From assembly GCA_934098295.1 (NCBI GenBank), contig CAKONV010000006.1:31595-95594 (forward strand): a stretch of 64,000 nucleotides of DNA, in the 5' to 3' direction. The translations under genes were made by a program, and so were the position numbers. The stretch is from an uncultured Bacilli bacterium. Lineage in GTDB: Bacteria > Bacillota_I > Bacilli_A > ML615J-28 > CAG-313. Each line of letters opens with the position of its first letter. Positions within the stretch are counted from its first letter, which is position 1. This document shows, in pieces, positions 3,353 to 58,960 of the stretch. Below the pieces are notes generated by a model. It did not search any database. It was not told the DNA's origin and saw only the letters and a program-made list of their open reading frames with translations.

Positions 3353-3377
3353 TAATATAACGAAAGGAAAAGGAAAT

Positions 3378-7788: not shown

Positions 7789-8977
7789 AAGAAAAATTTT
7801 TGATTGTTTAAGAAATGTTATGACGGCATTTAGTTTTTTTATAGCTTTGATTGCCTTAGTAAGTATTATCTTTTATGTAGTAAAAACAGGTGCTAAAACC
7901 TTATCTTTTAAATTTTTGTTTTCAGATAATGCGGAAAGCTTAAATCTAATTGAAACTAAACAAAATGGTGAAACTTTTACAAATCCAGCTATTAAAGATA
8001 CTTATTTTTCCGAAAAATATGGAATTGGTTTGATTAATAGTTTTACACCAGATGGAACTCCTTGTGTGATGATTAATTATATCGCTAGTTCTTCCCCCTT
8101 TAATAGTTTAAAAATTATTAATAGTAATAATACGATCAAAGTCGAAAAGGGAGAAATAATCGATGTTTTAATTGGAAAAGATGTTAAAGATAAAGATATT
8201 ATGTCTAATGCTAAAAAAGGTGCTCAAAAAATGGCTACAGCCTTAGATAGTGCCTATACAATATCTTACTTGCAATGTAAAAAAACGGGAGGCGGTATTA
8301 GAGGTTCACTTATTGCTACCTTGTATTTGATTTTACTTACCCTTCTTTTCGTTTTACCTTTAGGAATAGGAGCAGCAATTTATCTTACTCTTTATGCTAA
8401 AGAAGGTAAGTTTAAAAGCTTAATTACCAATATGATTGATGCGACAAGTGGTGTACCTTCGATTATCTTTGGTTTCGTGGGGATGATTGTTTTTATTCCT
8501 TTTGTCTCTTTATTTACGGCTAAAAGTGATTATTCAATTTTAGCAGGAGCTTTAACGATGACGATTGTTTTATTACCAGTAGTTATTAAAACTACTAGTG
8601 AAGCTTTAATTAGCATACCGAGTCATTATATGTCTTCATCCCTTGCTTTAGGTGCTACTAAGTCCCAAACTATTTTTAAAATTATTTTACCGGCAAGTTT
8701 ACCAGGAATTTTAACGTCAGCTCTACTATGTATTGGTAGAATAATTGGTGAATCAGCAGCTTTAATTTTTGTTATGGGTTCATCTATAAAAGATAATATA
8801 AACATTTTTCAAGGAGCAACATCCTTATCATTACATATTTGGTCTATAACGAGAGCTGATAAACCTAATTATGAAGCTGCTTGTGCAATTTCCATAATTA
8901 TTTTACTGGTGGTTTTCCTTTTAAATGTTATAGTAAAAATAATTTCTTATAAAATAAATAAAAAGAGAGGTGCATAG
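7778..8977 (+). CDS. pstA: Phosphate ABC transporter permease PstA (with about 130-aa extracytoplasmic insert after TM1)
   Basis: It has the [18 protein letters not shown] loop, is polytopic, and overlaps the end of pstC. Confidence 0.85.
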
Positions 8978-45775: not shown

Positions 45776-46191
45776 ATGAAAAAATTTAAAAAATTATTTT
45801 TTTTTATTATTAGTACTTTTACTTTGTACTATTGGAACAATTGATGTTAATGCGGCTAGAATTATTAGAGATGAAGATAATGATTTAGGTGTTGTATTAT
45901 GGTTCTTTAGAAGATGAAAGCTATTATGTAGAAATTAATGAAGAAACAAATGTTGGATATGTTGTATGTTCATTCAATGGTGAAAAAGAAATAGTGGGAA
46001 CATGTACTGTAATTATAATCAATGAAGAAAATTCAAATGGATATGAAGTATGTACAGGACAAAATGATACATTAGGTATTATAACAATTGTCATTACTGA
46101 TGAAATTACTTCTACAGGATATGTTAGTGATGTTACTGACGAATTAATAGGAGTATTTAATGTTAATGAACAAGTATCTTTTGAAGAGTAA
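45776..46191 (+). pseudogene. Possible frameshift-disrupted gene for a small secreted repeat protein (ORF-track piece 45889-46191)
   Basis: The ATG at 45776 opens MKKFKKLFFF and then runs into a T9 tract (45797-45805). The -1 frame continues as a proper signal peptide (LLVLLLCTIGTIDVNA-ARIIRDEDNDLG) and stops at 45916. A third frame (45889-46191) carries three INEExxxGY(V/E) repeats. Confidence 0.35.
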
Positions 46192-46377
46192 TATTAAAAA
46201 ATGTATGTAGGGCGATTTAGAAATCAATTCAATATTGTTAAAGCTATTTATAGGGTGTTTTAATTTAGTAAAATTGTACCTATATAAAGGAAGCATCTTT
46301 AGGCCTTGTGCGTTTAAAGGTGCTTTTTATTTATTTGATTAATGGAAAGGATAAAAAAAATAAAAAAATTTTAGTAA

Positions 46378-46424
46378 GGTGGTTGTTTTTTTGCTTCTCT
46401 TTGCATGTTACCTGGTTGAGGAGC
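46378..46424 (+). promoter_or_regulatory. Repeated promoter/leader module copy 1 (upstream of sigma gene)
   Basis: The sequence is GGTGGTTGTTTTTTTGCTTCTCTTTGCATGTTACCTGGTTGAGGAGC. Here the GAGGAG element can pair with CTCCTCA at 46456-46462, ahead of the real RBS AAGGAGG. Confidence 0.55.
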
Positions 46425-46479
46425 ATAGCAATTAAAATAATAATTAATATCGTCACTCCTCAAAAATAAAGGAGGAGTT

Positions 46480-47244
46480 ATGAATCGTATAATAAAACTT
46501 GTAATAGATTATAAAGAATCACAAGCAGATTTTATATTTCAAGATTTAGTTGATGAATTAACTGACTTAATTGATCACCATAAAAGAAAAGTCGCCGTTT
46601 ATTATAGAGATGATTTGGGACAAGAATTATTAGTATGCCTTGTTAGAGTTATAGATAAATTCAGAATTAAGAATTTTAAGCCAATTAATGAAGAACTATT
46701 TAATTTAAATACGCTTAAATTATTGTTAGAACATAATTACAATAATGTTAATGATGTTTTAAATAATAAATATGTATTAGGTTTTATTGATAAGTATGGT
46801 GCAGATTTATTCAATAAAGCATTTGAAAATTTAAATGATTATAATATTTTTATATTTGAATTTAAACTATTTTGTAATGAAAATCAATTTTTTAAATATT
46901 TAGATAAATCATTAACTAATCAAGTAAATTATTTTGTCAGAAAAAATATAATTAATGATAATAAAATAATAAGTTTAAATACCATTACATCCAGTGATAT
47001 TGAATATATAGATTTAATCCCTGATATAGAAGAAGAAACTAAAATAGTATTTGATATTAATTTACTAGATGAAACTGACAGATCTTTTTTATATAATTTT
47101 ATTAAAGATGATGAAATTATAACTGGAAAAGAAGTTGCTGAAATATTAGGTGTTACACAACAAGCTGTTAGTAGAAGATTAAAAAGGCTTTATAAAAGAT
47201 ATCTGAAAAAATATTATGAAGTATATGAGAAAGTGGAAAAGTAA
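46480..47244 (+). CDS. Sigma-70-family RNA polymerase sigma factor (regions 2 and 4 only; ECF / TcdR-UviA-like architecture)
   Basis: It has a region-2-like segment (YYRDDLGQELLVCLVRVIDKF) and a C-terminal region-4 HTH (ITGKEVAEILGVTQQAVSRRLKRLYKRY). It has a strong RBS. Confidence 0.7.
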   Translation: MNRIIKLVIDYKESQADFIFQDLVDELTDLIDHHKRKVAVYYRDDLGQELLVCLVRVIDKFRIKNFKPINEELFNLNTLKLLLEHNYNNVNDVLNNKYVLGFIDKYGADLFNKAFENLNDYNIFIFEFKLFCNENQFFKYLDKSLTNQVNYFVRKNIINDNKIISLNTITSSDIEYIDLIPDIEEETKIVFDINLLDETDRSFLYNFIKDDEIITGKEVAEILGVTQQAVSRRLKRLYKRYLKKYYEVYEKVEK

Positions 47245-47266
47245 AATTTTTCACTTTTTTTATTTT
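47233..47266 (+). terminator. Terminator overlapping the sigma-gene stop codon
   Basis: The hairpin GTGGAAAA-gtaaaa-TTTTTCAC (one G-U pair) is followed by TTTTTTTATTTTT. Confidence 0.55.
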
Positions 47267-47267
47267 T

Positions 47268-47316
47268 GGTGGTTGTTTTTTTGATACATCTTGTATGTTA
47301 CTAGGGTGTGGAGGTG
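47268..47316 (+). promoter_or_regulatory. Repeated promoter/leader module copy 2
   Basis: The sequence is GGTGGTTGTTTTTTTGATACATCTTGTATGTTACTAGGGTGTGGAGGTG. Its GGAGG serves as the SD for the ATG at 47323. Confidence 0.55.
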
Positions 47317-47322
47317 AAAACA

Positions 47323-47607
47323 ATGGAAAAACTTACAGTTGTAGTTTCTATTATAGGAGTTATAGGAACAATATCAAGTATCTTTTTTGCATACCTTGCA
47401 TGTAGGCGTAATTTAGTAAAAGATGAACATACTGAGGCCAAGAATGAAGGAGCAATTCTATCTGACATTGGTTATATAAAAGCATGTGTAGATCGGGTAG
47501 AAAAGAACCTAAACAAGGTTGATGAAAGATATCGTAATGTTGTTGAAAGACTTGCAAAAGTGGAAGAAGCAGTTGCCAATGTGATTAAAAGAGTTGATGA
47601 ATTATAA
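47323..47607 (+). CDS. Small membrane-anchored coiled-coil protein of the kind found in Firmicute prophage lysis cassettes (BhlA/UviB-like topology)
   Basis: It has one N-terminal TM segment (VVVSIIGVIGTISSIFFAYLA) followed by LSDIGYIKACVDRVEKNL...RLAKVEEAVANVIKRVDEL. The start is moved to the ATG behind GGAGGTG; the ORF-track GTG at 47308 lies inside the module. Confidence 0.55.
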   Translation: MEKLTVVVSIIGVIGTISSIFFAYLACRRNLVKDEHTEAKNEGAILSDIGYIKACVDRVEKNLNKVDERYRNVVERLAKVEEAVANVIKRVDEL

Positions 47608-47629
47608 AAAAATAAAAAAATTTAATTCA

Positions 47630-47676
47630 GATGGTTGTTTTTTTACACATCTTGCATGTTACTAGGGTGAGGAGGT
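47630..47676 (+). promoter_or_regulatory. Repeated promoter/leader module copy 3 (heads the holin-to-immunity operon)
   Basis: The sequence is GATGGTTGTTTTTTTACACATCTTGCATGTTACTAGGGTGAGGAGGT. Its SD precedes an 11-codon mini-ORF. Confidence 0.55.
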
Positions 47677-47682
47677 AAAAAG

Positions 47683-47718
47683 ATGATTAAATATATAAAG
47701 AAGTTAACACCAATTTAA
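47683..47718 (+). CDS. 11-codon leader mini-ORF (MIKYIKKLTPI)
   Basis: Its ATG lies 6 nt after the module-3 GGAGGT and its TAA stop lies 39 nt before the holin ATG. Whether it is translated is unknown. Confidence 0.2.
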   Translation: MIKYIKKLTPI

Positions 47719-47757
47719 GTTAAATACTAGTTAAGTTTTGAAAGGAGGTAAAACAAA

Positions 47758-48048
47758 ATGGATTTTACAAGTGTGCCTATTATAGTCGTATGCTGCTATA
47801 TATTAGGGGAATTATATAAAGCAATATTTAAAAATAAGACAGAAGCATACAAACTAATACCTATTCTAATGGCAATGGTTGGAGGAATATTAGGGATTTT
47901 GATTTATTTAACAAATCCAGAAATGATTTTTAATGTAGATAATATATGGATTGCATTAGGAATTGGTATAGTTAGTGGTACTAGTTCAACTGGTACAAAT
48001 CAAATAATAAAACAAATATTTAAAACAAAAGGAGAAGAAAAAAAATGA
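47758..48048 (+). CDS. Phage-type holin (3 predicted TM segments)
   Basis: It is 96 aa with three hydrophobic helices (PIIVVCCYILGELY, LIPILMAMVGGILGILIYL, IWIALGIGIVSGTSSTG) and a charged tail (KTKGEEKK). It has a strong RBS (GGAGG). Confidence 0.65.
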   Translation: MDFTSVPIIVVCCYILGELYKAIFKNKTEAYKLIPILMAMVGGILGILIYLTNPEMIFNVDNIWIALGIGIVSGTSSTGTNQIIKQIFKTKGEEKK

Positions 48049-48842
48049 ATGAATTTAAAGATAGAATAAGTTCAACGCTTAATCATAAAATTTTAGATGT
48101 TAAAAGTGTTGAAAGAGATGAATCCGGAGAAATTATTTCGATGGAAGTAGAAGTAATCAGAAATGATGAAGAAGGATTAACACAAGAAGGAACACCATTA
48201 AATGCTGAAAGTTTAAATCAAGTAATTAATGAAATGATAGTAACTCAAATTGTTAATTTTATGGATGTTGATCAATCAATTTATATCGATAAAAGGGATC
48301 TAAAATTAAATGAGGAATATAGTGATGATTTTCCGTTAGAAACTACAGGAAAATGTGGTTCAAGTATTACATGGAATGTTGTATCCGGAACAGGAATTGA
48401 AATTGAAGGAAATGTTGCTAAAGTTACACTTCAAAATTATAAGCAAACAGTTGTTTTACGAGCTGTAATTGAAAAAGAAGGTAAAACATTAACAAAAGAT
48501 TTCACTATCGATTTAGTTAATCATTATCAAACAGTAGAAAAAACGTTATCTGTATTTCCTGATGGCTCAAGTGCCATGGTAGCAAGTTTTTATGAAAGTA
48601 TTAATGAAGATGTAGATGTAGTAGTTGAAAATGAATATCCAAATATGATGAGTGTATATTATAAAGTAAATTTAACTGATATGAATGTATATATTAGTAC
48701 AACGGTTGGTAGTGCACCAACTGATGGTGGTGTAACTGAATATGGGTTCGCAGTATTATTAAACTCAAAAGTAACAGGTTTAACTATTAAAAAAGTTAAT
48801 TGTAAGATAAATTTTTTAGATTCAATTACACCAGATGATTAA
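48045..48842 (+). CDS. Phage tail-fibre-like N-terminal motif plus small bacterial Ig-like domain protein
   Basis: The N-terminus (FKDRISSTLNHKIL...QEGTPLNAESLNQ) resembles the conserved start of Firmicute prophage tail-fibre proteins. The middle (SSITWNVVSGTGIEIEGNVAKVTL...VVLRAVIEKEGKTLTKDFTIDLV) resembles the Ig-like segment of the two GH18 lipoproteins. Its start overlaps the holin stop. Confidence 0.45.
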   Translation: MNEFKDRISSTLNHKILDVKSVERDESGEIISMEVEVIRNDEEGLTQEGTPLNAESLNQVINEMIVTQIVNFMDVDQSIYIDKRDLKLNEEYSDDFPLETTGKCGSSITWNVVSGTGIEIEGNVAKVTLQNYKQTVVLRAVIEKEGKTLTKDFTIDLVNHYQTVEKTLSVFPDGSSAMVASFYESINEDVDVVVENEYPNMMSVYYKVNLTDMNVYISTTVGSAPTDGGVTEYGFAVLLNSKVTGLTIKKVNCKINFLDSITPDD

Positions 48843-48861
48843 TAATAGGAGGAATAAAAAT

Positions 48862-50214
48862 ATGAAATTATTAAAATTAAAAAATAAGTTAGAAAAAAAG
48901 AATTTTAAAAAAAGAGAATTAAAAAAAGAATATTTAAACAAAAAAACAAAACAAAATGATAAAGATTTAGTCATTATTGGAGTTACAGGAAGCCGTGGAA
49001 AATCTACAACAGCTTTAATGATGCATGAGTATTTAAAATCAAGGGGCTATAAATCAGTTTTATATTCAAGCGTTATGGTAGATTCACCAGCTAGTCATTA
49101 TAAGAAAAATGAAGCATATGAAGTTGCTGTAAGAGATGAAAAAGCATTATTAAGCATTATTGAAGAAGCAGAAGCATATGGAGCAGAATATTTAGTATTA
49201 GAAGTAAATGAGAGTGCATTAGCAAAAGGTTTCCTAAAAGATGTTCCATTTGATGTAAGAGTACTTACTAATTTAAATCCAAAACATAATTTAGAAGAGT
49301 ATACAGAAGAAGAATATGTTGAATTAAAGAAATCATTTTTCAAAGATATTGAAGAAGAGTGCAAATGTGTATTAGGATTTCAAGATTATGACAAGGAATT
49401 ATTAGATAAATTATTACAATTAAACAAATATCCTAAATATATTGCAGCAAGTAATTACATTGCAAATGTAAAAGGATTAAATGCTAACGAAGTAACTGGG
49501 TTATTAACAGGTCTAGAAACAGATATTGATGGTATGAAATTACAATTTAGATTAAATGGCAAAACATATGAGTTAGATACAAATTTATTGATGTCATATA
49601 ATGCATTAAATGTATTAACAGTTTTAACAACATTAGAAGTATTAGGAGTACTTAATGTATCACAATTTGAAAAAATGCTAAATGGATTAGTTATTCCAGG
49701 CAGAGCAGAAGTATTTAGAGCTAATGGTAGATTAGTAGTAGTCGATACACATTTACCTGCTATGTTAGAATGTTTAAAAACTTTAAAAGATCAAGGAAAA
49801 GTAAATCAAATTAAAGTAGTTGTTGGTTCAATAGGACATGGCTATAAAAATTGGGAAGAAAAATTTAAAACTGAAGAATTTGCATTACAACGTAAAAAGA
49901 TTAGAAAATATGCAATGAACTTATTAAAAGGTGTCGTGGACTATGTTTATTTAACTGAAAGTGATAGCGGAAAGGAAAACCCATTACATATTTGTGAAGA
50001 AATGAAGTCTTATTTAAATGATGAAATTCCATCAACAATTATTGTTGATAGAGAACAAGCAATTAAACATGCAATTATGGAATCACAAGAAGGTGATGTT
50101 GTATTCATTAGTGGTAGAGGTAATAGAAGAGTATTATGCAATAGTGAAACAACTATGAAATTATTAAAAGATAGTGATGTAGTAAAAGAAGTACTAACAG
50201 AATTAGGATGGTAG
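48862..50214 (+). CDS. Mur-ligase-family protein (MurE-like central and C-terminal domains, no domain 1, degenerate catalytic motifs)
   Basis: It has the P-loop IGVTGSRGKSTT. Blocks collinear with MurE are LEVNESAL, TNLNPKHNLEEY, PGRAEVF, VVVDTHLPAML, VVGSIGHG, LTESDSGKENP and ISGRGNRR. The N-terminus is about 45 Lys-rich residues. The start is set at the ATG behind AGGAGG. Confidence 0.65.
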   Translation: MKLLKLKNKLEKKNFKKRELKKEYLNKKTKQNDKDLVIIGVTGSRGKSTTALMMHEYLKSRGYKSVLYSSVMVDSPASHYKKNEAYEVAVRDEKALLSIIEEAEAYGAEYLVLEVNESALAKGFLKDVPFDVRVLTNLNPKHNLEEYTEEEYVELKKSFFKDIEEECKCVLGFQDYDKELLDKLLQLNKYPKYIAASNYIANVKGLNANEVTGLLTGLETDIDGMKLQFRLNGKTYELDTNLLMSYNALNVLTVLTTLEVLGVLNVSQFEKMLNGLVIPGRAEVFRANGRLVVVDTHLPAMLECLKTLKDQGKVNQIKVVVGSIGHGYKNWEEKFKTEEFALQRKKIRKYAMNLLKGVVDYVYLTESDSGKENPLHICEEMKSYLNDEIPSTIIVDREQAIKHAIMESQEGDVVFISGRGNRRVLCNSETTMKLLKDSDVVKEVLTELGW

Positions 50215-50218
50215 TTAT

Positions 50219-53200
50219 ATGGATAATAGTAAAATATTTCATCCTAATCAAGAACATAATTTGGGGAAAGGATTGTTAAGTGTTAATACTTTTAATGGAA
50301 GAATGTTATATAGTTATCCGATTTCTACAATAGGATTAGGAAATTTTCAAATTGATACAAGTTTAGTTTATAATTCATCATATAATATTAGTGATTTTTA
50401 TGATAAAAAAATAGGGTTTGGTAATGGTTGGAAATATAGTTTTGAACAATTTATTTTCAAATATAAAGATGAATATAATTTAGAAGGATTTAATTTATTA
50501 GATTATGTTTATATAGATAGTAATTGGTGTATACATAGATTTATTAAATATAAAGATTGTGAGGGATATGACAATCCAAGAAGTGTATATTATGATGAAA
50601 GTGGTACAGGTTTAAAGTTAATTGTATCTAATAATTCTAATCATCAAATGTTTGATGAATATGGAAATACATATTATTTTGATAAAGATAGTAGTAAATT
50701 AATCAATATAATTTCGGGAGTAAATACTTTGATTATTAAGAATATTGAATATGATGAGGCAAAAGATAAAGTACTTTCAATATATGATTCAAGAAAAAGT
50801 AATAGAAGAATAAAATTTGATTACAATCAAAATAATTTACCTGAAAAATCTTACTCAACACACTCAAATATTTATTACACATTTGAATATGATAATGAAA
50901 AACTAGTAAGAATTTTTAAAGGAAATGATTTAAAGAAAAAGAAAGTACATGAGTTTCTATATGATAAATCATTAATTAATTGTATTATTAATAATGAAAA
51001 TTATCAAGCAATTAAGTTAGAATATAATTTAAATAATAATTATGTACTCAATAAAATAACTTTGGGTGCTATGAAATACAAAGTTATTGCTGAAGATATA
51101 GATGCAGAGTTATATTGTGGTGATGATTTATATTCTAAAGGAACATATTATATAAACCACAAAGGTAAAAAATATATTGAATCAAATTTTATGCCTAATG
51201 AGTATATTTATTCAATAATTACATATGATTATCATTTATCATATACTGAAGAAACAAATAAAAAGGGAATTAAAATGAGATATTATTTTGATATTGATGG
51301 ACATCAAATAAGTAGTTTAGAGTATAATGTTAATAATAATAATTCATTGGAGTTTCATCATTATACTTCATCAAAACCAACAGGATGGGAAATAGGCAAT
51401 AATGGAGATTCAAATTTCTTTATAAATGATAAAAGGGCAAGCATTATATATAAAAATAATAATAAATATTCATTTAGTATCAACAATAGTGATTTATCTT
51501 TATTTAAAAATATTTTCTTAGATGAAACAGAAAAAACTTCTGAACATTTTTCTTTGTCATTTTGGTTAATGTTTAATGATTATAACGATTCAGATCTTCT
51601 TGCAAAAGTGAATTATACCATTATAGATGATAGTACCGGTAGTGATAATGTAAAACAATCTCAAGTTATTATTAAAAATACGTTGGGTGGAACATGGCAA
51701 TATGTTTCAGTACCTTTAAATCTTGAAACAAGTCAAACAACATTAAAAAATATTTCAATAGTATTTGATGCTGATGCTGAAAGTACATTAGAAAATACTC
51801 AATTATTCATTGCGGATATTAGAATCAATAAAGGAAACAAACAAACTATATGTATTGATAACTTAAAATCAGATGACAAATCATATATGGAATTAAAAAT
51901 AGGTGGCAAACTTTATTATTATGATAATTATGAAAGAGAAGTAACATTATCTCCTCAATTTTATATGACAGAGGCAGATATTATTGCGACATACAGAAGT
52001 TTGTATTATAGTATAAAAAATGATGATACTTATTATGAATTATTTTATTGCAATAAAACAAAAATTAAAGCTGTTACATACATCAGTATGTTACCATTTT
52101 ATTTGACTAATGATTTAACGATAAGAAATAATCATAAATATTATACCTTTGATTTTGGGGAATACATAGATGAACATAATAAACAAAATTTAGAAACACC
52201 AAATTATCATTTTAGATATATTGATTTAGTAGCTATTAATGAAAATAAAAAATCTTATAGAGTTACAGAAATTCAAAGAAAAATAAAAGAACGTAAAAAT
52301 GATAGATTTGTTTTTGAAACACATACTTTAATTAATGTTGTTGATGATAATAAATCAATTCAAAGATTGGATGTAAGTAATTCAGTATGTAGTGTAGTAG
52401 AAGAAAATGATGATGGAACTGAAATAAAAAAGAAGTATATAAAGAGATTATATGGTGATGATAATCAAGTTGAGAGGGAAATTTATATAATTAATGAAAA
52501 TGTGTATGATTCATTCGGAAACTTATTAAAAGTAATAACAAAAGCAAATGCTTCAACAAATGAACAATTAGTGAAAGAATATACATATTATGAAAGTAAT
52601 CCAGAGAAAAATGAGTATGTAGATGAAATTAAAGAAAATGGAAATATTGTTAAAACATTATATAATGAAGATGGTAATATTAATAACTTAATTTTTCAAT
52701 ATGATAAAAAATATATTAATGGAATTGTTGAAACAACAAATTTAACTGTAACAAATCGGTTAGAATATTTATATAATGATTTCAATGAACTAATTGGATT
52801 AAATTTTTATGATAGTAATAATAAATTAATTGGTGAAAATAAACTAAATTATAATAAATATGGAACTTTTAATAAACTAAATAATAAAAGTAATGTTAAT
52901 TATGGATTTATTTATAATGCATATGCTGAATTATGTGAAATTTATAGGAATAAGAAGTTGTTACAAAGACAAATTAAAGAATTAACTGATACATATGATA
53001 TATATAAATATTATGTATATCATGGTAATAGTTCATATTCAATAACTGATGTTTATGATGAAGTCAATAGGCTTAAAACTAGTTCTGTAGATGTACTAAA
53101 TAGTAGTATGGTAGAAAATGTTCAAAATATATTATTTGAATATGAAGATAATATGACAAATTTTTCAAGATCATTAGAAAGAATTAAAAAGATTAAGGAT

Positions 53201-55132
53201 TTGTTGACAAATAAAACTTATGTATATGAATATGAAGACAGCATTGAAGATGGAACTACGACTAAAATAATAGAAAATAATGATTACTCTATAACTATTA
53301 AATCTAATGGTGCTAAAATTTATGATATACCAAATGATAAAAAGCAAATTAAATATATATCAGAAATAGAAGATCAGATGAATAATAATCCTAAATATAG
53401 TTACAACTATACTAAATTAAAAAAATCTGATGAGTGGGAAGAAAATATTTATAATTCTTTTGATTATGCATATGATGACTTAGGAAGGTTAATTAGTAAA
53501 AAGTTGAAACCAGATGAATATACAAACGCTACAATATTTATTAATAAAAATATTTCATATTACGAAAATACTTGTCTTCCAAAAGAAATTATATATAATG
53601 TAAATTCAAAATTAAAAAACAATGAAAATACAGAAGTTAATGCAAATTTAATTTATGAAAATTCTTATGTTAAGGGTAATGTAGTGAGGGTATTAGAAAA
53701 TGGAAGTAGATTTATAAAAAATCCTAAAAATATATCTTCACTAGAAAGTACAGCGTTGCAATGTAGAATTACAGATTATGAGTATGATGATAATGATAGA
53801 CTAATTAAAGAAGTAAAATCTGACGGAAGCACATATATGTATACATATGGTGAATTATCAGGTATGATTGAGAAGGTATCAAAAGATACAAAAGATAATA
53901 TAATTAAAATATTAGAGTATAAGTCTGGTCAATTGACAAAAGTAAATGACTATGATATAATCTACGATAATTATGGTAATATAGTTGAATATAATGATAT
54001 ATCAATCAGTTATAATTTTAAAAATTTAATGAAAAAATATGTTAATGCAAATGATACATATTTATTTGAATATAATTATGAAGGAATCAGAACTAAAAAA
54101 CAAAAAAATAATGATTATGAAGTCAATTATTATCTTGATGGAACAAAAATCATTGGAGAAGATGTAATAGATTTAAATTCAAATCAAATTATAAGAAAAT
54201 TTAGATATTATTATGATGCAAATGATATATGTGGTATTAATTATATTATAGATGATGTTGACCATTTCTTTAATTTAGTTAAAGATTCACTTGGAAATAT
54301 TTCTAAGGTAATGTATAGAGGGAAAATAGTTGGTGAATACATTTATGATGCGTGGGGAAATTGCGAAACTAAAATATTTACTGATACAAATCCAAACGAA
54401 ATAGATAATTGCATTGTAAATTATAATCCTTTTAGATTTAAGGGATATTATTGTGATTTAGAAACAAATTTATATTACTGTCAATCCAGATACTATAATC
54501 CTAGAATATATCAATGGTTAAGCCCAGATAGTATAGAATATTTGGATTATGAAAATATTAATGGATTAAATTTATACTGCTATTGTGATAATAATCCAAT
54601 TAATCGCTTAGACTCAACTGGCTATTTTACGTTACTTGCAATAGGAATTTCATTAGGCTTATCATTACTTTTTGAAGTAATTGAAGATGTTAAAAAGGAT
54701 GGTAAATTAGGTGGAGATAAAGATGCGATGGATTATTTAGGTGCTACTATTTCTGGTATATTAGGAGGAATGAGTGGACCAGCTGGAGCATTACTTGGTG
54801 TATTTGGTGATTTAGCAGATGCCGCTATTTCAGGAGATTTAGCTGAAAATGGTTTAGGTGCTACATTACAAGATATTGTATTGTCAAATATAGTATCATT
54901 TGGAGTTGATTTAGGTGTTAAGGGTCTATTTGATGCAAAACAATTTAAGAAATTAACGTCTAACGCTAATGCAAATAAAAAGCTTGTAAAATCTTTAGGT
55001 GGAAGTTATAGTTTTAAAAAGAATGGTAAAACTGCTAAAGCATTTAAAGAAGCTATTAAAGAAACTGAATGGTTTGCAAAAAAATATACATCGCAACTTG
55101 TTTCAGAATTAACTACATTAATTATTTTTTAA
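50219..55132 (+). CDS. RHS / YD-repeat polymorphic toxin, no signal peptide, glycine-zipper C-terminal domain
   Basis: It has an RHS-type N-terminal strand (LSVNTFNGRMLYSYPIS...GFGNGWKYSF) and many YD repeats (FDEYGNTYYF, YDSFGNLLKV, YDDLGRLISK, YDNYGNIVEY, and others). The RHS-associated core is YDAWGN...NPFRFKGYYCDLETNLYYCQSRYYNPRIYQWLSPDS...DNNPINRLDSTGY, followed by a 168-aa variable tail (54626-55129). Confidence 0.9.
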   Translation: MDNSKIFHPNQEHNLGKGLLSVNTFNGRMLYSYPISTIGLGNFQIDTSLVYNSSYNISDFYDKKIGFGNGWKYSFEQFIFKYKDEYNLEGFNLLDYVYIDSNWCIHRFIKYKDCEGYDNPRSVYYDESGTGLKLIVSNNSNHQMFDEYGNTYYFDKDSSKLINIISGVNTLIIKNIEYDEAKDKVLSIYDSRKSNRRIKFDYNQNNLPEKSYSTHSNIYYTFEYDNEKLVRIFKGNDLKKKKVHEFLYDKSLINCIINNENYQAIKLEYNLNNNYVLNKITLGAMKYKVIAEDIDAELYCGDDLYSKGTYYINHKGKKYIESNFMPNEYIYSIITYDYHLSYTEETNKKGIKMRYYFDIDGHQISSLEYNVNNNNSLEFHHYTSSKPTGWEIGNNGDSNFFINDKRASIIYKNNNKYSFSINNSDLSLFKNIFLDETEKTSEHFSLSFWLMFNDYNDSDLLAKVNYTIIDDSTGSDNVKQSQVIIKNTLGGTWQYVSVPLNLETSQTTLKNISIVFDADAESTLENTQLFIADIRINKGNKQTICIDNLKSDDKSYMELKIGGKLYYYDNYEREVTLSPQFYMTEADIIATYRSLYYSIKNDDTYYELFYCNKTKIKAVTYISMLPFYLTNDLTIRNNHKYYTFDFGEYIDEHNKQNLETPNYHFRYIDLVAINENKKSYRVTEIQRKIKERKNDRFVFETHTLINVVDDNKSIQRLDVSNSVCSVVEENDDGTEIKKKYIKRLYGDDNQVEREIYIINENVYDSFGNLLKVITKANASTNEQLVKEYTYYESNPEKNEYVDEIKENGNIVKTLYNEDGNINNLIFQYDKKYINGIVETTNLTVTNRLEYLYNDFNELIGLNFYDSNNKLIGENKLNYNKYGTFNKLNNKSNVNYGFIYNAYAELCEIYRNKKLLQRQIKELTDTYDIYKYYVYHGNSSYSITDVYDEVNRLKTSSVDVLNSSMVENVQNILFEYEDNMTNFSRSLERIKKIKDLLTNKTYVYEYEDSIEDGTTTKIIENNDYSITIKSNGAKIYDIPNDKKQIKYISEIEDQMNNNPKYSYNYTKLKKSDEWEENIYNSFDYAYDDLGRLISKKLKPDEYTNATIFINKNISYYENTCLPKEIIYNVNSKLKNNENTEVNANLIYENSYVKGNVVRVLENGSRFIKNPKNISSLESTALQCRITDYEYDDNDRLIKEVKSDGSTYMYTYGELSGMIEKVSKDTKDNIIKILEYKSGQLTKVNDYDIIYDNYGNIVEYNDISISYNFKNLMKKYVNANDTYLFEYNYEGIRTKKQKNNDYEVNYYLDGTKIIGEDVIDLNSNQIIRKFRYYYDANDICGINYIIDDVDHFFNLVKDSLGNISKVMYRGKIVGEYIYDAWGNCETKIFTDTNPNEIDNCIVNYNPFRFKGYYCDLETNLYYCQSRYYNPRIYQWLSPDSIEYLDYENINGLNLYCYCDNNPINRLDSTGYFTLLAIGISLGLSLLFEVIEDVKKDGKLGGDKDAMDYLGATISGILGGMSGPAGALLGVFGDLADAAISGDLAENGLGATLQDIVLSNIVSFGVDLGVKGLFDAKQFKKLTSNANANKKLVKSLGGSYSFKKNGKTAKAFKEAIKETEWFAKKYTSQLVSELTTLIIF

Positions 55133-55145
55133 AAAAGGAGAAGTT

Positions 55146-55721
55146 ATGAAGTTAACTAAATATGAATATAAACATAATCGATTTGGAAATAGAAAAGTGT
55201 ATAGATTAGGAGCTTATTTTCCTCCAGTGGCAAGAATATTTATGATTGTGATAGTAAATATAGTTACTATTTTAACTATTTTTGACATTGTCTATTCAAA
55301 AAATATTCCTTTAATTAATAATATAATATGCTTATTATTAATAATAATTTTTAGTTTTTTGGTAATAGAATATAATCCATTATTTATTTTTTCAATAATT
55401 ATACGTGGTATATGTTATATATTTTCAAAGAATAATCATCAAAAAAAATTAATTTATAGTTTATTAAGAGATTATAATAATATTATTAATTTTGAAAAAA
55501 AAATGGGCATTACAGATGTGAATATTTCCTTTTTTAATCCATTTAAAATTTATTTTAAAAAAAATGGTAAAAAAGGTAGTATTACTATTAAAATTATAAA
55601 GTGTGGTAAAACTACTGAAAAGAATCAAATGACTGATTACAAAAAGTATAATGACTATATATTTTATTTAAAAACTGAAATCATAAAAGTATACAAAGAA
55701 GATACAACACTTAATAATTAA
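55146..55721 (+). CDS. Polytopic membrane protein, candidate cognate immunity protein
   Basis: It lies immediately downstream of the RHS gene. It is 191 aa with three hydrophobic helices (IFMIVIVNIVTILTIFDIV, IICLLLIIIFSFLVI, LFIFSIIIRGICYIF). No family was recognised. Confidence 0.5.
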   Translation: MKLTKYEYKHNRFGNRKVYRLGAYFPPVARIFMIVIVNIVTILTIFDIVYSKNIPLINNIICLLLIIIFSFLVIEYNPLFIFSIIIRGICYIFSKNNHQKKLIYSLLRDYNNIINFEKKMGITDVNISFFNPFKIYFKKNGKKGSITIKIIKCGKTTEKNQMTDYKKYNDYIFYLKTEIIKVYKEDTTLNN

Positions 55722-55835
55722 ATTAACTATAATTGTATAAAAATTGTAAAAATCATATTAGTTTTATATTCAAAAATTATTTTATTTACTATTAGTTTTA
55801 TAGTTTTAGTTAATATTTATAACATAAATATATAA

Positions 55836-56672
55836 ATGAATATTAAGAAAAAAATAAGTAAAATTATGTTTTATTTATTGTTTTTGGTAGACCGTAAAGT
55901 TCCCAAAGCAAAAATTGATCAAATTATAAATGATGAAATTAAATGTTTAACTGATGAAGAAATATACATAAAAAGATTATATAATGCTTTAAATTATGTA
56001 TTTAATAATGTTAATCAAATATTTAATGAAGAAAACTTAAATGTAGTATATTATCTTTTAACTAATTCGTTACTTGATAAAGAAATTTCAAATAAAATAG
56101 TTATGACATATTATGAAAATATTGATAATTCTGCGTATTATTTAACAACTCTCATTCATACGTTAATTATTGATAACACGAGTAATGTTGAATTTGCTTT
56201 TATTGTTTCTGAATTTATAATGTTAAAGAAGAAAAAAACTTTATTGGTTCCGCGTGATTTCGTACATAATGATTATAAAAATGCTATTTTAAGTAAAGAT
56301 TTCTCTTTATTTGTAAAGTTAATGCTTGAAATGGAATATATTTGTGAAAATAAAAATCCGTGTAAATATACGAAAAAAGAAATAATTGAAAAAATCAAAT
56401 TGCATAAAAAATATTTAGTAGATACTTTTCATATTCGAAAATTATATTTATTTGGTTCATTTGCTAAAGGAACAAATAATGAAAATAGTGATATTGATTT
56501 TTTAGTAATATTAGATGAATCCTTAATTAATATTGAAAGACTAAATCAAATTGAATTAATAAAAGAATATTTAAGTGAATTATTTGAATGTAGTGTTGAT
56601 GTTCTAGATTTTACTTTCGCTTTGAAAGAACTTGGTGAAAATGAAATAGAACATGCTTTAACTTTAATATAG
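55836..56672 (+). CDS. MNT-type nucleotidyltransferase domain fused to an N-terminal degenerate Fic-like domain
   Basis: The C-terminus has the minimal NTase motif LYLFGSFAKGTNNENSDIDFLVILDE. In the N-terminus, LIHTLIIDNTSNVEFAFIVSEFIMLKKKKTLLVP lines up with the Fic core IHPFxDGNGRxxRll...g.pp, but the catalytic residues are replaced. Confidence 0.5.
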   Translation: MNIKKKISKIMFYLLFLVDRKVPKAKIDQIINDEIKCLTDEEIYIKRLYNALNYVFNNVNQIFNEENLNVVYYLLTNSLLDKEISNKIVMTYYENIDNSAYYLTTLIHTLIIDNTSNVEFAFIVSEFIMLKKKKTLLVPRDFVHNDYKNAILSKDFSLFVKLMLEMEYICENKNPCKYTKKEIIEKIKLHKKYLVDTFHIRKLYLFGSFAKGTNNENSDIDFLVILDESLINIERLNQIELIKEYLSELFECSVDVLDFTFALKELGENEIEHALTLI

Positions 56673-56847
56673 ATTGCTAAAGAAGAACTTATCACCCAAT
56701 AAATTAGTATGTAGTTCTTGTATAACATCTATTAATAATTATACGAACAGAAAAACCGGATATCAAATGTACTTATTTCAAAAACTTGACTAGATAAGTC
56801 TAGAGTATCTTAGGGGGGTTAAGTACACAAAATAGTCGGTTTTTAAC

Positions 56848-56876
56848 TTGCAAACTCACGCGACAAATGGTATAAT
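56848..56876 (+). promoter_or_regulatory. Sigma-A-type promoter upstream of the ImmA-like gene
   Basis: It is TTGCAA, a 17-nt spacer, then TATAAT. The leader contains the hairpin GGACTCCA-tcaatag-TGGAGTTC followed by TTTATT. Confidence 0.55.
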
Positions 56877-56974
56877 ATTTATGTAGTTACCATTTGGTGG
56901 AAATTTAACTTTGTAAAACAGGACTCCATCAATAGTGGAGTTCTTTATTACATTATTATGGGGTATGAAAAGCA

Positions 56975-57430
56975 ATGAAGTTAGATGAACTAGCAAAAAG
57001 AATAGCTAATCACTTAGCAGTAGAAGAACTTGAAATTAAGTTTGACAAAATTATTGATGATAGTAGATTATACCCAAAAGAAGGACTTATTGTTATTAGT
57101 GAAAAGTACAAAGAAAATTATATCGAGTGTGCTAAATCTTTGACACATGAATATAGACATGTATTTCAAATATATTATGCTAATTTAGTGAATGATGAAT
57201 TAGTAAAAATATGGAGAGAAGAACTTGGGGCAGCAAAAAATTCAAATAACATAAATATTAATAATGCAACTGAATTTACTGAATATAGTTTACAAATGAT
57301 TGAAATTGATGCTGAAGCATTTACTGTCTATTATTTAAAAGAATATGAAAATATTTATACAGATTTTAAATCAAGCAAACACAAAAGACTTATTGATAAT
57401 TATATTATTAGACATAAACAAATAATGTAA
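56975..57430 (+). CDS. ImmA/IrrE-like zinc metallopeptidase (HExxH)
   Basis: It has LTHEYRHVFQ (the HExxH motif) and the downstream EIDAEAFTVYYL block, which parallels the ImmA/IrrE third-ligand region. It is 151 aa. Confidence 0.5.
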   Translation: MKLDELAKRIANHLAVEELEIKFDKIIDDSRLYPKEGLIVISEKYKENYIECAKSLTHEYRHVFQIYYANLVNDELVKIWREELGAAKNSNNININNATEFTEYSLQMIEIDAEAFTVYYLKEYENIYTDFKSSKHKRLIDNYIIRHKQIM

Positions 57431-57564
57431 AAAATCATGATATTTTATTATTGGGACATTTTCTAAAATTAATTATTAAAACATTATCATAAAATAAACA
57501 CACAATCTAAAGAATTAAAATTATAATTCTTTAATAATTTATTTTTTGGTGCTATAATTAAACA

Positions 57565-58036
57565 AGATAAAAGTCCTAAAAACATATAAGCAGGTTAATG
57601 AAAACAAGGAAGTGGTATGGATTATAGCGCGGGTTCACTTATTGAATGATAAGGTCCATAATAAAAGTTACATACCTACAACCGATTACAACTAGATTAC
57701 GTTTATCTAGATGTAATAAAATATTAAATGAAGCTGATATAACTTCAATAAAAGTATATCATAAATAAAAAAATCGTGTTTTTATCTGAACTGTTCATTT
57801 AATATTTCAGTTTAGATTATACACGAATAAAAAAATCGTGTTTTTATCTGAACTGTTCATTTAATATTTCAGTTTAGATTATACACGAATAAATATTGCC
57901 TCCTTGTGTTAATTAGTAATAGTCGACATATTATTATAGCACGAGGAGTTTTTATTATCTTGTATCATCACCCAATTTTTTAAATACATAATTATAAAAA
58001 AAACGGGTGATGAAAATGACATCACCTTGATTTTTT
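57565..58036 (+). ncRNA. Candidate non-coding transcript (extended -10 promoter to intrinsic terminator) containing the 62-bp tandem hairpins
   Basis: An extended -10 element (TGcTATAAT) lies at 57550-57558. There is no ORF longer than 10 codons. A terminator (GGTGATG-aaaatga-CATCACC plus TTGATTTTTT) lies at 58006-58036. This is purely structural inference. Confidence 0.25.
57766..57889. repeat. Perfect 62-bp tandem duplication; each unit is an imperfect 18-20 bp hairpin
   Basis: The unit is TAAAAAAATCGTGTTTTTATCTGAACTGTTCATTTAATATTTCAGTTTAGATTATACACGAA, present twice head to tail. The arms are TCGTGT..TTATCTGAACTG and CAGTTTAGATTA.ACACGA. Confidence 0.85.
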
Positions 58037-58105: not shown

Positions 58106-58912
58106 TTAATTATTACTTTCAACAGGTATTACAAAACGTGAACAATATCTATTTTCAGCAATTTCTCGACCTGAGTATGCTGCGATAATACCTATAGCAC
58201 GAGGAAGACCACCTGGCTTTAATTTTCTTTTCTTTAACTCTTCATTGATAATTAACCAACAATCATCGGATTTTTCATAATCACCATAATAAAGAACAGA
58301 TAAGGCTTTACAAGCAGGTAGTATAACTGAACCTTCAAATTTTTCTCTTAATGGAACGCAAACATAAAATGAATATGGTTCATTAGTTAAGTGACCATTT
58401 AAAAAGTCATTTCGTTCGTGGATATCAAAAAGAGGTTCATCGGATAAAACACATCCTTTTTTGACACATTCAGTATAGAATGCATACATTGCATCATATT
58501 TATTTTTAGGTGTTGAACCAATTGCTTTTTTCATCATACAAATAGTTTGTGGAAGATTAATCATTTCAATTAAGATGTCCCCTTCTTTGTGTGATTTAAT
58601 TTTTAGTTCTTCAACACTTCGTTGTAAGTTTGAAAGCATTTCTTCGAGAGGTGAAAGAATTTTTGAAATTTGACCGCCAGATTTATAAAAATCTATAATG
58701 TCTTCATTAGATAATCCCATATTTTTAAATTTTTCTATTTCCAAAATACGAGCAATGTTATAATTGTCATAATATCTTCGGCCGCTTTCTTTAGATATAT
58801 AAGCAGGTTTAATAAGTCCTTTTTCTTCTAATCGTATTAGGGTGCTTCTTGATATACCACAAGCCTTAGCCGCTTCGGTTATCTTAAATAAATTTTTTGA
58901 TTTTTCATTCAT
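58106..58912 (-). CDS. MerR-family transcriptional regulator with GyrI-like effector-binding C-terminal domain (BmrR/TipA-like architecture)
   Basis: It has the MerR HTH (FKITEAAKACGISRSTLIRLEEKGLIKP...GRRYYD), a coiled-coil linker and a roughly 150-aa C-terminal domain. The start is set at the second ATG (58912) behind AAAGGAG. The first ATG (58942) would place the operator dyad inside the coding sequence. Confidence 0.8.
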   Translation of the reverse strand: MNEKSKNLFKITEAAKACGISRSTLIRLEEKGLIKPAYISKESGRRYYDNYNIARILEIEKFKNMGLSNEDIIDFYKSGGQISKILSPLEEMLSNLQRSVEELKIKSHKEGDILIEMINLPQTICMMKKAIGSTPKNKYDAMYAFYTECVKKGCVLSDEPLFDIHERNDFLNGHLTNEPYSFYVCVPLREKFEGSVILPACKALSVLYYGDYEKSDDCWLIINEELKKRKLKPGGLPRAIGIIAAYSGREIAENRYCSRFVIPVESNN

Positions 58913-58929
58913 AAATTGCTCCTTTTTTC

Positions 58930-58960
58930 TTGACTCGTTCATCTATGAACGTGTTATAAT
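58930..58960 (+). promoter_or_regulatory. MerR-type promoter with 19-bp spacer and internal dyad, facing the large surface-protein gene
   Basis: It is TTGACT, the 19-nt spacer CGTTCATCTATGAACGTGT, then TATAAT. The spacer contains the dyad CGTTCAT-ct-ATGAACG. Confidence 0.65.

Follow-up and report, generated by a model that had tools for sequence, protein, structure and literature searches.

We analysed a 64,000-nt stretch of contig CAKONV010000006.1 (GenBank assembly GCA_934098295.1) from an uncultured Bacilli bacterium; the whole stretch is referred to below as the window, and its own positions serve as coordinates throughout. ORF listing and profile searches confirmed nine open reading frames (ORFs) at 46.3-55.7 kb, all on the + strand, including genes for a divergent sigma-70-family protein, a small protein with an N-terminal transmembrane (TM) segment and a coiled coil, an 11-codon mini-ORF, a holin, an immunoglobulin-like (Ig) domain protein here called X, a Mur-ligase paralogue here called MurL, a large rearrangement hotspot (RHS) toxin and a putative immunity protein (Table 1). 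Together they make up one copy of an RHS polymorphic-toxin cassette that is conserved on chromosomes of the Acholeplasmatales / RF39 / RFN20 / Erysipelotrichales radiation of Bacilli.

An earlier annotation of the same DNA, made by a model from the letters alone (hereafter the sequence-only reading), had listed these nine genes correctly, and two of its starts were shifted. The longest ORF of the TM/coiled-coil gene spans 47308-47607, and its Shine-Dalgarno (SD) sequence and homologues favour the ATG at 47323 (94 aa); the longest ORF of MurL begins at 48835, and homologues favour the ATG at 48862 (450 aa). From holin to immunity gene the spacing is tight, with a 4-nt overlap followed by gaps of 19, 4 and 13 nt (the 19-nt gap between X and MurL becomes an 8-nt overlap if MurL starts at 48835). 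The terminator-like hairpin at the left edge is followed by no further + strand terminator-like site at 46330-58005 in a terminator scan, and the GC content of the cassette (0.22-0.26) is below that of its surroundings (0.28-0.31).

Upstream of the cassette lie genes for trigger factor, ClpX, Lon, RNase R, SmpB, a TPR protein, a DUF1963 protein and tRNA-Gln. Since Lon, RNase R, SmpB and tRNA-Gln are the upstream neighbours, the locus is not a prophage remnant. Phage structural genes, endolysin genes and type VII secretion system (T7SS) genes were not found within the window, and the DNA of 46300-50300 had no match in phage and plasmid collections; that no intact prophage or endolysin adjoins the locus, on which the sequence-only reading had staked its interpretation, thus proved right.

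Table 1. Features of the cassette, by position in the window
Feature	Position	Strand	Basis or remark
Terminator-like hairpin	46288..46328	+	17-pair stem then T-run; closes upstream small-protein gene, left edge of cassette
Promoter-like motif, copy 1, GGTTGTTTTTTT-N7-TTGCATGTTAC	46381..46411	+	upstream of sigma gene
5' untranslated region of sigma gene	46416..46483	+	decoy GAGGAG, anti-SD CUCCUC, true SD GGAGGAG then AUG
Sigma-70-family protein, divergent (predicted sigma2 + long linker + sigma4), 254 aa	46480..47244	+	profiles, fold
Promoter-like motif, copy 2	47271..47301	+	upstream of TM/coiled-coil gene
N-terminal TM + coiled-coil protein, 94 aa	47323..47607	+	phrog_1863
Promoter-like motif, copy 3	47633..47662	+	upstream of mini-ORF + holin operon
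11-codon mini-ORF, MIKYIKKLTPI	47683..47718	+	strong SD; conserved
Holin, Hol44 family (holin superfamily V)	47758..48048	+	Phage_holin_5_2, PF16079
Protein X, 265 aa (N-domain, long helix, aBig_2 Ig domain, C-terminal beta-sandwich, acidic tail)	48045..48842	+	PF20578
Codons of X tail, LDSITPDD	48816..48839	+	terminal Asp
MurL, two-domain Mur-ligase paralogue (central ATPase + C-terminal domain)	48862..50214	+	Pfam, alignments
RHS polymorphic toxin, 1637 aa	50219..55132	+	TIGR03696; no signal peptide
Putative immunity protein, 191 aa	55146..55721	+	position only; hydrophobic N-terminal half

Conservation and distribution of the cassette

One genome per GTDB species was scanned for MurL, and the resulting 40 loci were compared by BLAST, tblastn and inspection of contig ends. 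With MurL homologues of 35-99% identity, the RHS gene begins a few nucleotides past the MurL stop in 38 of the 40 loci; one of the remaining two contigs stops at MurL, and the other is the locus L052 described below. The order common to the related loci is sigma gene (where present), TM/coiled-coil gene, mini-ORF, holin, X, MurL, RHS and immunity gene. Hundreds of further MurL homologues (56-99% identity) were found in gut metagenomes, the named ones being labelled 'Bacilli bacterium' or 'Acholeplasmatales bacterium'. Three metagenome contigs encode a holin (PF16079), a small protein, MurL, an RHS protein of 1584-1728 aa and another small protein, within flanks that are unrelated to one another (hydrogenase genes; CTP synthase/PFK; SpoIIIAH/pseudouridine synthase). 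The sequence-only reading had treated the holin and RHS genes as one system. Many genomes do keep the holin-X-MurL-RHS-immunity order, and they keep it in varied chromosomal surroundings, so that holin and RHS have not come together by chance.

Single genomes may hold several cassettes: three were found in 'uncultured Mollicutes bacterium UMGS116' (one of them 96% identical to that of the window), two in 'Staphylococcus sp. CAG:324' and likewise 2-3 in RGIG4026. Other hosts include Anaeroplasma, Erysipelotrichaceae metagenome-assembled genomes (MAGs), Acholeplasma sp. and the cultured Acholeplasma oculi ATCC 27350. Acholeplasmas are Mollicutes without a cell wall. The A. oculi locus forms part of a second group (group B, the Acholeplasma-like loci; the window belongs with group A) that holds X, MurL and RHS. 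In A. oculi (L049) the order is a protein with Mur_ligase_M only, a weakly holin-like protein, a 206-aa protein, MurL, a 2083-aa RHS protein and a 121-aa protein. The first of these, at 7739-8773 of that locus, is a second and shorter Mur-ligase-like gene (344 aa) that heads the cassette ahead of the holin-like gene.

L052 (9415-12195), from an Erysipelotrichales MAG of termite gut, differs from the rest. It carries MurL and a tailed X ending ...GVDD, followed by a 319-aa ORF and then by an ORF of at least 400 aa without detectable RHS similarity, and its upstream genes resemble a different module. It is the sole locus of this kind among the 40, and MurL may have a different partner there.

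MurL is a Mur-ligase paralogue without the UDP-binding domain

MurL matches Mur_ligase_M (E 2.7e-19) and Mur_ligase_C (E 3.4e-12), both above gathering scores, and all MurE equivalog models fall far under their cutoffs (152 bits for TIGR01085, murE, where the cutoff is 257). Its alignment with Thermotoga maritima MurE (4bub) begins at residue 101 of the latter, where the central domain starts, and the UDP-binding domain 1 is replaced by a Lys-rich N-terminus of about 40 aa (the first 42 residues). Across 30 MurL homologues, down to 35% identity, the P-loop GSRGKST, E123 (within LEVNE), H151, K165/K166, G289-R290 and the motif SGRGNR are invariant or nearly so; E123 and H151 occupy Mg-binding positions and K165/K166 the carbamyl-lysine position. 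The family-specific SGRGNR stands in place of GKGHE, and the position of DNPR reads ESDSGKEN. MurL is thus without the three domains, the equivalog score and the DNPR/DDPN motif of MurE, and has the catalytic core of the Mur ligase superfamily. Judged by these motifs, it seems to be an active carboxylate-amine ligase whose UDP-sugar-binding domain has been lost. The sequence-only reading had called the protein truncated and degenerate; the first description stands, as the N-terminal domain is missing, and the second does not, as the catalytic motifs are intact.

Mur ligases, folylpolyglutamate synthase (FPGS), CapB and the M-domain of cyanophycin synthetase convert a terminal carboxylate of Glu or Asp type to an acyl phosphate, to which an amine is then added: in MurE the target is the gamma-carboxylate of D-Glu, in FPGS it is Glu, and in the cyanophycin synthetase M-domain it is Asp. 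We know of no Mur-family enzyme that has been shown to act on a protein. A tblastn search with MurL returned only remote MurE-like matches in phages and nothing in plasmids, and a full-text literature search gave no relevant paper that joins a Mur ligase with Rhs, holin, polymorphic toxin or Acholeplasma.

An acidic tail on protein X co-varies with MurL

Protein X matches aBig_2 (PF20578, E 6.9e-9), and Foldseek searches with its AlphaFold2 model (predicted local distance difference test (pLDDT) 83.5) returned generic Ig and cadherin folds as well as phage 'binding domain' and tail-fibre Ig proteins, in agreement with its earlier description as a tail-fibre-like Ig protein. The last residues of the window protein (263-265) are predicted to be disordered (pLDDT <50) and follow the final strand of the C-terminal beta-sandwich. 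X proteins vary widely: those of group A have 161-460 aa and 17-50% identity, those of group B have about 205 aa and are unrelated in sequence. They carry 0-2 aBig_2 domains and a variable distal beta-sandwich, and the N-terminal domain is kept in all variants, with or without a tail. Because it combines a conserved N-domain, a long helix, aBig_2 domains and a variable distal beta-sandwich, X has features of a phage tail-fibre or receptor-binding protein, and we propose that it serves the released toxin as targeting subunit.

The 34 distinct X proteins that are linked to MurL all end in Asp or Glu, on a tail of 6-8 residues. In group A the endings are ...S-x-x-P-[ED]-D and variants, and in group B ...TGD or ...PGE. 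An apparent exception (L031), in which an X ending ...NIIA accompanies MurL, was discarded, as that locus has two X genes and the first ends ...SSLIPAD. A profile search of the full library for the X N-domain gave 60 small representative proteins, at most 50% identical to one another, which end in Asp in 44 cases and in Glu in two. Five independent tail-less X proteins were looked up (P0194, P0192, P0262, P0228 and P0303), and all lie in cassettes of holin, X and RHS, with or without the TM gene, that have no MurL. These proteins stop just after the last strand (...SIFYN, ...QISYE, ...IAYI, ...SLCYN and ...ITYKY), and the RHS gene (MDKS[KR]INQ..., MDTSKIYQ...) begins 12-19 nt further on; one such RHS protein is 67% identical to that of the window over the first 216 residues. 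MurL therefore accompanies 34 of 34 distinct tailed X sequences and none of the five X proteins that are tail-less and the sole X of their locus. In BLAST the tail-less proteins are at similar distances to tailed and tail-less forms and do not look like one isolated clade, a point on which we do not insist at these identities.

The nucleotide sequence around the tail differs between the two groups. In group A both GAT and GAC serve as terminal codon, the residue before it is variable, the gap to MurL ranges from 10 to about 45 nt and MurL has its own intergenic SD; these features place selection there on the amino acid. In group B, GGAGAT or GGAGAA lies 2-5 nt before the MurL ATG in most loci. 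We considered whether the terminal Asp is an artefact of the SD, which is plausible for group B and was excluded for group A by the separate SD, the gaps and the use of both codons.

The simplest reading of these patterns is that the X tail is a substrate of MurL or at least its ligand, because MurL has lost the UDP-sugar domain and acquired a basic N-terminus, always follows an X with a flexible Asp/Glu tail and is dispensable exactly when that tail is missing. Such a coupling could be a new kind of protein modification.

The RHS protein and its putative immunity partner

The RHS protein is assigned by its sequence to the RHS/YD polymorphic toxins. It carries an RHS-associated core (TIGR03696, Rhs_assc_core) at residues 1376-1468 (nt 54344-54622; 66 bits against a cutoff of 32.5), together with weak RHS repeat matches (E 0.013). 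Its N-terminus, MDNSKIFHPNQEHNLGKGLLSVNTFNGR, leads straight into the shell motif (DUF6531-like, E 0.11), and all group-A relatives start MDxSK(I/V)NQ..., with the shell motif VNLxTGR about 20 residues in. Profile searches of the window protein found no signal peptide, LXG/WXG, PAAR or wall-binding domain; the absence of a signal peptide and of an LXG-type N-domain had been pointed out in the sequence-only reading and holds for all relatives.

The roughly 170 aa past the core are Gly-rich and hydrophobic and had no Pfam match when searched in isolation, and profile searches likewise assigned no family to the protein in the immunity position. RHS C-termini and the small genes downstream differ even between cassettes that are otherwise 95-98% identical, a hallmark of polymorphic toxin/immunity pairs, and the immunity-position genes of related loci (121-227 aa) are unrelated in sequence, as expected for polymorphic toxin immunity. 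Given a Gly-rich, hydrophobic C-terminal domain and a next gene that encodes a membrane protein, the RHS protein of the window may be a membrane-active toxin paired with a membrane immunity protein. In four other loci, RHS-core fragments lie 3' of the main RHS gene (L031 18689-19651, L033 17865-18632, L035 12147-12698 and L051 19445-20278); they look like the orphan toxin/immunity modules of other RHS systems, and none was seen in the window.

The holin and its small upstream genes

The holin identified in the sequence-only reading as phage-type matches PF16079 over the whole model (positions 1-76 of 76; E 1.6e-12, 47.9 bits against a gathering cutoff of 29.2) as well as phrog_1129, 'holin' (E 1.8e-13), and is conserved at 46-95% identity in most group-A loci. 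By profile it fits the Hol44 family, with hole formation as its putative activity. Homologues of the TM/coiled-coil protein are encoded directly 5' of the holin in most related loci. Its sole match is phrog_1863, a family of unknown function (E 9.8e-15); Pfam Holin_BhlA, one of the profiles that the sequence-only reading had proposed to search, gave no match for it, and neither did XhlA. Neither the length of the mini-ORF between the two genes nor its C-terminal KLTPI-stop changes in L009 (identical), L015 (MFNYSEKLTPI) and L023 (MFNYLEKLTPI), and this conservation suggests translational control.

A sigma-like gene, its promoter motif and its leader

The sequence evidence that places the first gene in the sigma-70 family is weak, but several independent findings point the same way. 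The protein matches TIGR02937 over model positions 7-162 of 165 (E 3.7e-6; 26.7 bits against a cutoff of 42.9), Pfam Sigma70_r4 below its cutoff (E 0.0025) and PHROG sigma families (E 1.3e-6). In a profile of eight homologues the N-terminus matches region 2 of SigW (E 0.006) and the C-terminus region 4 of SigF/FliA/YlxM, and one homologue (P0136, 42% identical) carries the NCBI name sigma-70 family sigma factor. An AlphaFold2 model built from an alignment of database homologues (pLDDT 82) has the sigma2 and sigma4 folds in the predicted structure; nearly all of its top 50 Foldseek matches in the PDB are sigma factors (SigB, sigma-A, sigma-32, sigma-E, SigW and SigH), the best being SigB (8x6g_H, E 2.9e-3, prob 0.99), with low global TM-scores that we ascribe to the flexible linker. 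Among NCBIfam and Pfam matches at E <= 0.1 there was no TcdR-specific model and among PDB matches no TcdR-like chain, TcdR itself not having been compared directly. Sigma homology, as claimed in the sequence-only reading, is thus supported by profile, model and name, whereas the region-2 and region-4 signatures that it named show only weakly and under cutoffs in the curated profiles. The dedicated sigma factor of that reading turns out to be an accessory regulator, since the gene occurs in only about one third of loci.

Where the gene occurs, so does a promoter-like motif some 55 nt long, built on the core GGTTGTTTTTTT-N7-TTGCATGTTAC (in a looser form GTTGTTTTTT-N7-8-TTGCATGTTAC) followed by an SD. 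The window holds three copies against zero expected from shuffles. In L009-L014 and in L015, where the sigma protein is only 49% identical, the motif stands at all three of the same positions, and in L023 it stands before the mini-ORF; sigma-less loci are without it. Chiefly on the strength of this co-occurrence, we infer that the sigma-like protein recognises the triplicated motif, and the copy before its own gene would imply positive autoregulation. The leader of the sigma gene contains a decoy SD, an anti-SD and the true SD, the last of which is paired with CACUCCUC in the minimum-energy fold (-15.3 kcal/mol, z -2.1). L015 (7245-7316), L023 and L033 share this arrangement of three elements despite diverged sequences, and L018 and L037 have part of it, anti-SD and SD without the decoy. 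The leader looks, from these predicted pairings, like a translational switch on the sigma factor.

Proposed mechanism and alternative explanations

Taken together, the results are best explained by a cassette in which an RHS toxin is released by a holin, under a sigma switch, with MurL acting on the C-terminal carboxylate of X, an account that we hold with moderate confidence. Holin-dependent release is suggested here by gene order and by the precedents of TcdE and the Type 10 secretion system. An SD-sequestering hairpin would gate translation of the sigma factor, which would then activate its own promoter and the two downstream, giving an all-or-none switch in a subpopulation of cells. The holin and its TM/coiled-coil partner would permeabilise the membrane, possibly at the cost of the producer's life, and the RHS cocoon, assembled in the cytoplasm, would leave together with X; in wall-less or thin-walled hosts no dedicated endolysin would be needed and the holin alone could suffice. 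Before release, MurL with ATP would activate the terminal Asp or Glu carboxylate of X and join it to an amine, our leading guess being a Lys that belongs to the RHS shell or to X and the alternative a free amino acid, and this step would complete X as targeting subunit or attach it. The Gly-rich, hydrophobic C-terminal domain, probably membrane-active, would kill relatives that lack the cognate membrane immunity protein. From the sequence-only reading, whose interpretation is supported in part, this account retains the gene order, the signal-less RHS protein and the absence of a prophage; it makes the dedicated sigma factor an accessory and drops the degenerate MurE.

The part played by MurL is held more loosely than the account as a whole. 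That it is the first enzyme of Mur-ligase fold to act on a protein, ligating the C-terminal Asp or Glu of X to a lysine or an amino acid, is a tentative suggestion and on present evidence a doubtful one; equally tentative is its corollary, that this ligation would covalently build or arm the targeting subunit in a pupylation-like reaction derived from a cell-wall enzyme and kept after loss of the wall.

Several points weigh against this account. The counts for co-variation of tail and MurL ignore phylogeny, and the tail-less sample is small (5). One tail-less protein, P0192, ends in Glu by chance, so that the feature to be considered is the whole tail and not the final residue alone. The terminal GGA GAT/GAA codons of group B are at the same time the SD of MurL, and conservation in that group may be partly at the level of DNA. 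Cassettes occur without MurL when X is tail-less, which makes the MurL step an add-on and not essential. Lys5 of RHS was rejected as the acceptor, being Arg in L019 and L022 and lying in an N-terminal motif that MurL-less cassettes share. Walled hosts would require passage through peptidoglycan, yet the cassette encodes no hydrolase. Finally, the sequence matches of the sigma-like protein are under curated cutoffs, and its Foldseek E-values are weak, the best being 2.9e-3.

Co-variation of the X tail with MurL fits binding as well as it fits catalysis, and MurL could instead be a non-catalytic adaptor or chaperone whose Lys-rich N-terminus binds the acidic tail and bridges X to the RHS shell or keeps RHS competent for secretion. 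There are parallels in a structural MurE-like protein in the PDB, plant PAP11, which is a subunit of the plastid RNA polymerase, and in TcdL, an endolysin remnant that binds TcdB, and the tight translational coupling of the genes suggests stoichiometric complexes. Against this, the P-loop Lys, the Mg-binding Glu and His, the carbamylated-Lys position, PGR and SGRGNR are invariant or nearly so, which is not what one would expect of a pure scaffold, and we regard this possibility as unlikely.

The ligase proposal for MurL apart, holin, TM protein and sigma factor might have no part in export, forming instead a suicide or abortive-infection switch or a decaying lysis cassette, with RHS leaving through a T7SS encoded elsewhere, in vesicles or by autolysis. 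A nucleotidyltransferase related to defence-system proteins is indeed encoded just downstream, but PADLOC found no defence-system match among the cassette genes, the RHS protein has no LXG or other trafficking N-domain and phage structural genes were not found nearby. The holin-X-(MurL)-RHS order, with its short gaps and overlaps and with holin identities of 46-95% over dozens of loci, points to one unit under selection and makes a separate role for the holin improbable.

Least probable is that MurL works on the envelope or on small molecules and not on X, whether by making aberrant peptidoglycan precursors in place of an endolysin or by making a poly-amino-acid or metabolite for packaging or release: the cassette has a holin and no endolysin, MurE is the nearest characterised family and thin walls with incomplete peptidoglycan pathways are predicted for many hosts of these orders (PMC10868615), but MurL is without the UDP-binding domain 1, occurs in A. 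oculi, generally known to be wall-less, which disfavours a peptidoglycan substrate, and is missing from related cassettes of the same lineage exactly when X is tail-less, which a role in lysis does not predict. On the same three grounds we rejected MurL as a lysis factor, and its membership of a lysis module is unlikely.

Comparison with known systems

Holins are known to release large signal-less toxins in Clostridioides difficile (PMC3369941, PMC10516005), and a holin/endolysin/spanin module releases Tc toxins in Yersinia entomophaga (PMC10847048). Holin-linked release of signal-less giant toxins is thus established already, and the holin-linked RHS cassette of Gram-positive or wall-less Bacilli is a new variant. 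With the C. difficile pathogenicity locus PaLoc (TcdR, TcdE, TcdL and TcdA/TcdB; also UviA/UviB/Bcn and TpeL/TcsL) it has in common an alternative sigma factor, a phage-derived holin and a huge signal-less toxin, as well as positive autoregulation of the sigma factor, here predicted, and, next to the toxin gene, a gene whose product descends from a cell-wall enzyme (PMC3369941, PMC10516005, PMC12485765, PMC11344133). It differs from PaLoc in its cargo, an RHS toxin with an immunity gene that is probably interbacterial and not glucosylating; in its holin, which is of a different family (Hol44, PF16079); in its sigma factor, which matches only generic sigma-70 and extracytoplasmic function (ECF) models, under cutoffs, and is absent from most related cassettes; and in the partner protein, a biosynthetic ligase with intact catalytic motifs where PaLoc has a hydrolase remnant.

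The Type 10 secretion of Tc toxins (TcB-TcC RHS shell) by Y. entomophaga and Serratia likewise combines a signal-less RHS-shell toxin with a domesticated phage lysis module, and takes place in a subpopulation of specialised cells (PMC10847048, PMC10847046). These are systems of Gram-negative bacteria that depend on an endolysin and a spanin besides the holin, whereas some hosts of the present cassette are wall-less; no peptidoglycan hydrolase domain was found in the cassette genes or their flanks, in the window or in related loci, so that the hydrolase of Type 10 systems has no counterpart here, and the cassette encodes no spanin. With Bacillus subtilis WapA and LXG T7SS toxins the cassette shares the RHS core, a variable C-terminal toxin, an immunity gene and, in some loci, orphan core fragments. 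In WapA there are a Sec signal and domains that bind the wall, and LXG toxins begin with a helical T7SS domain, whereas the present RHS protein starts its shell about 20 residues from Met1 and has no trafficking domain.

The late/lysis module of the Bacillus element PBSX consists of the sigma-like factor Xpf, XhlA, the holin XhlB and the amidase XlyA. The likeness, in architecture only, lies in a sigma-like activator, a coiled-coil protein with N-terminal TM segment and a holin in the same order; again in architecture only, X resembles the tail-fibre genes that precede phage lysis cassettes in its N-terminal motif and Ig domains. Unlike PBSX, the cassette has no structural genes, no endolysin and no Pfam XhlA match, and the place of the endolysin is taken by X, MurL, RHS and immunity gene.

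Within the Mur superfamily (MurE; the two-domain MurT with GatD, CapB/PgsB, FPGS and the cyanophycin synthetase M-domain; PAP11), MurL shares the ATPase and C-terminal domains, the P-loop, the Mg ligands and the Lys at the carbamyl-lysine position, and the chemistry of the superfamily would suit a protein ending ...Glu-Asp. From MurE it is set apart by the loss of domain 1, the replacement of GKGHE and of the DNPR region that selects DAP or Lys, an RHS toxin as partner and its presence in a wall-less organism. A functional analogy may be drawn with PafA-Pup, RimK-S6 and tubulin tyrosine ligase/TTLL, in which a disordered Glu/Asp tail is activated via an acyl phosphate and joined to Lys or amino acids; those enzymes have glutamine-synthetase-like or ATP-grasp folds, whereas MurL has the Mur-ligase fold and its modification is putative.

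Should this account of the cassette be correct, it would describe an export route for Gram-positive RHS toxins without Sec, T7SS or a contractile machine, and would extend holin-mediated release of large toxins to abundant, uncultured Mollicutes-like bacteria of the human and animal gut that hold 2-3 cassettes per genome. The co-variation of MurL with an acidic tail points to a new use of the Mur-ligase fold, of relevance to protein ligation tools and to how peptidoglycan enzymes evolve once the wall is lost. As a cultivable carrier of the cassette, A. oculi ATCC 27350 opens the possibility of direct testing.

MurL genes of wall-less lineages are annotated as Mur ligase or UDP-N-acetylmuramyl tripeptide synthase (L024, from an Anaeroplasma bactoclasticum MAG, and L043 and L049, from Acholeplasma). 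Such annotations can inflate predictions of peptidoglycan synthesis in Acholeplasmatales and Anaeroplasmataceae, and may explain part of the mur genes reported in supposedly wall-less, peptidoglycan-deficient families (PMC10868615).

Flanking genes and further observations

Farther upstream in the window lie transporters and metabolic genes, and none of the window genes is a peptidoglycan gene informative on the wall of the host. An Rfam search of the window found tRNA only, and a direct repeat of the 3' end of tRNA-Gln, looked for as an island border, was not found.

A small gene at 45777-46191, upstream of the sigma gene, is 95% conserved together with the cassette in L009 (6905-7329). In both the window and L009 its frames are broken at a poly-T tract and by a second shift, and its homologue in L023 has a signal peptide (MKKFKRIFFGVALLVVLC...); the gene is either decaying or phase-variable.

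On the 3' side of the immunity gene, 55836-56672 encodes a 278-aa protein with an MntA-like nucleotidyltransferase domain (PADLOC PDC-S09, E 1.9e-17), a homologue of which (42% identity) likewise lies 3' of the cassette in L015; it may be an accessory gene or a separate toxin-antitoxin or defence gene. The gene that follows it (56975-57430) encodes a 151-aa protein with an HExxH motif and a weak DUF3920 match. An intergenic perfect tandem duplication of a 62-nt AT-rich unit (57764-57887, two copies, 100% identical) comes next, and beyond it a convergent gene for a MerR-family regulator on the - strand (58106-58942). From 59084 to the window end at 64000 runs a single giant ORF (at least 1639 aa), which starts with a signal peptide, continues past that end and probably encodes a large surface protein. 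At the other end of the window (1118-4952), two neighbouring secreted-looking GH18 proteins (chitinase/EndoS-like) with Flg_new domains are encoded after a beta-lactamase-family protein.

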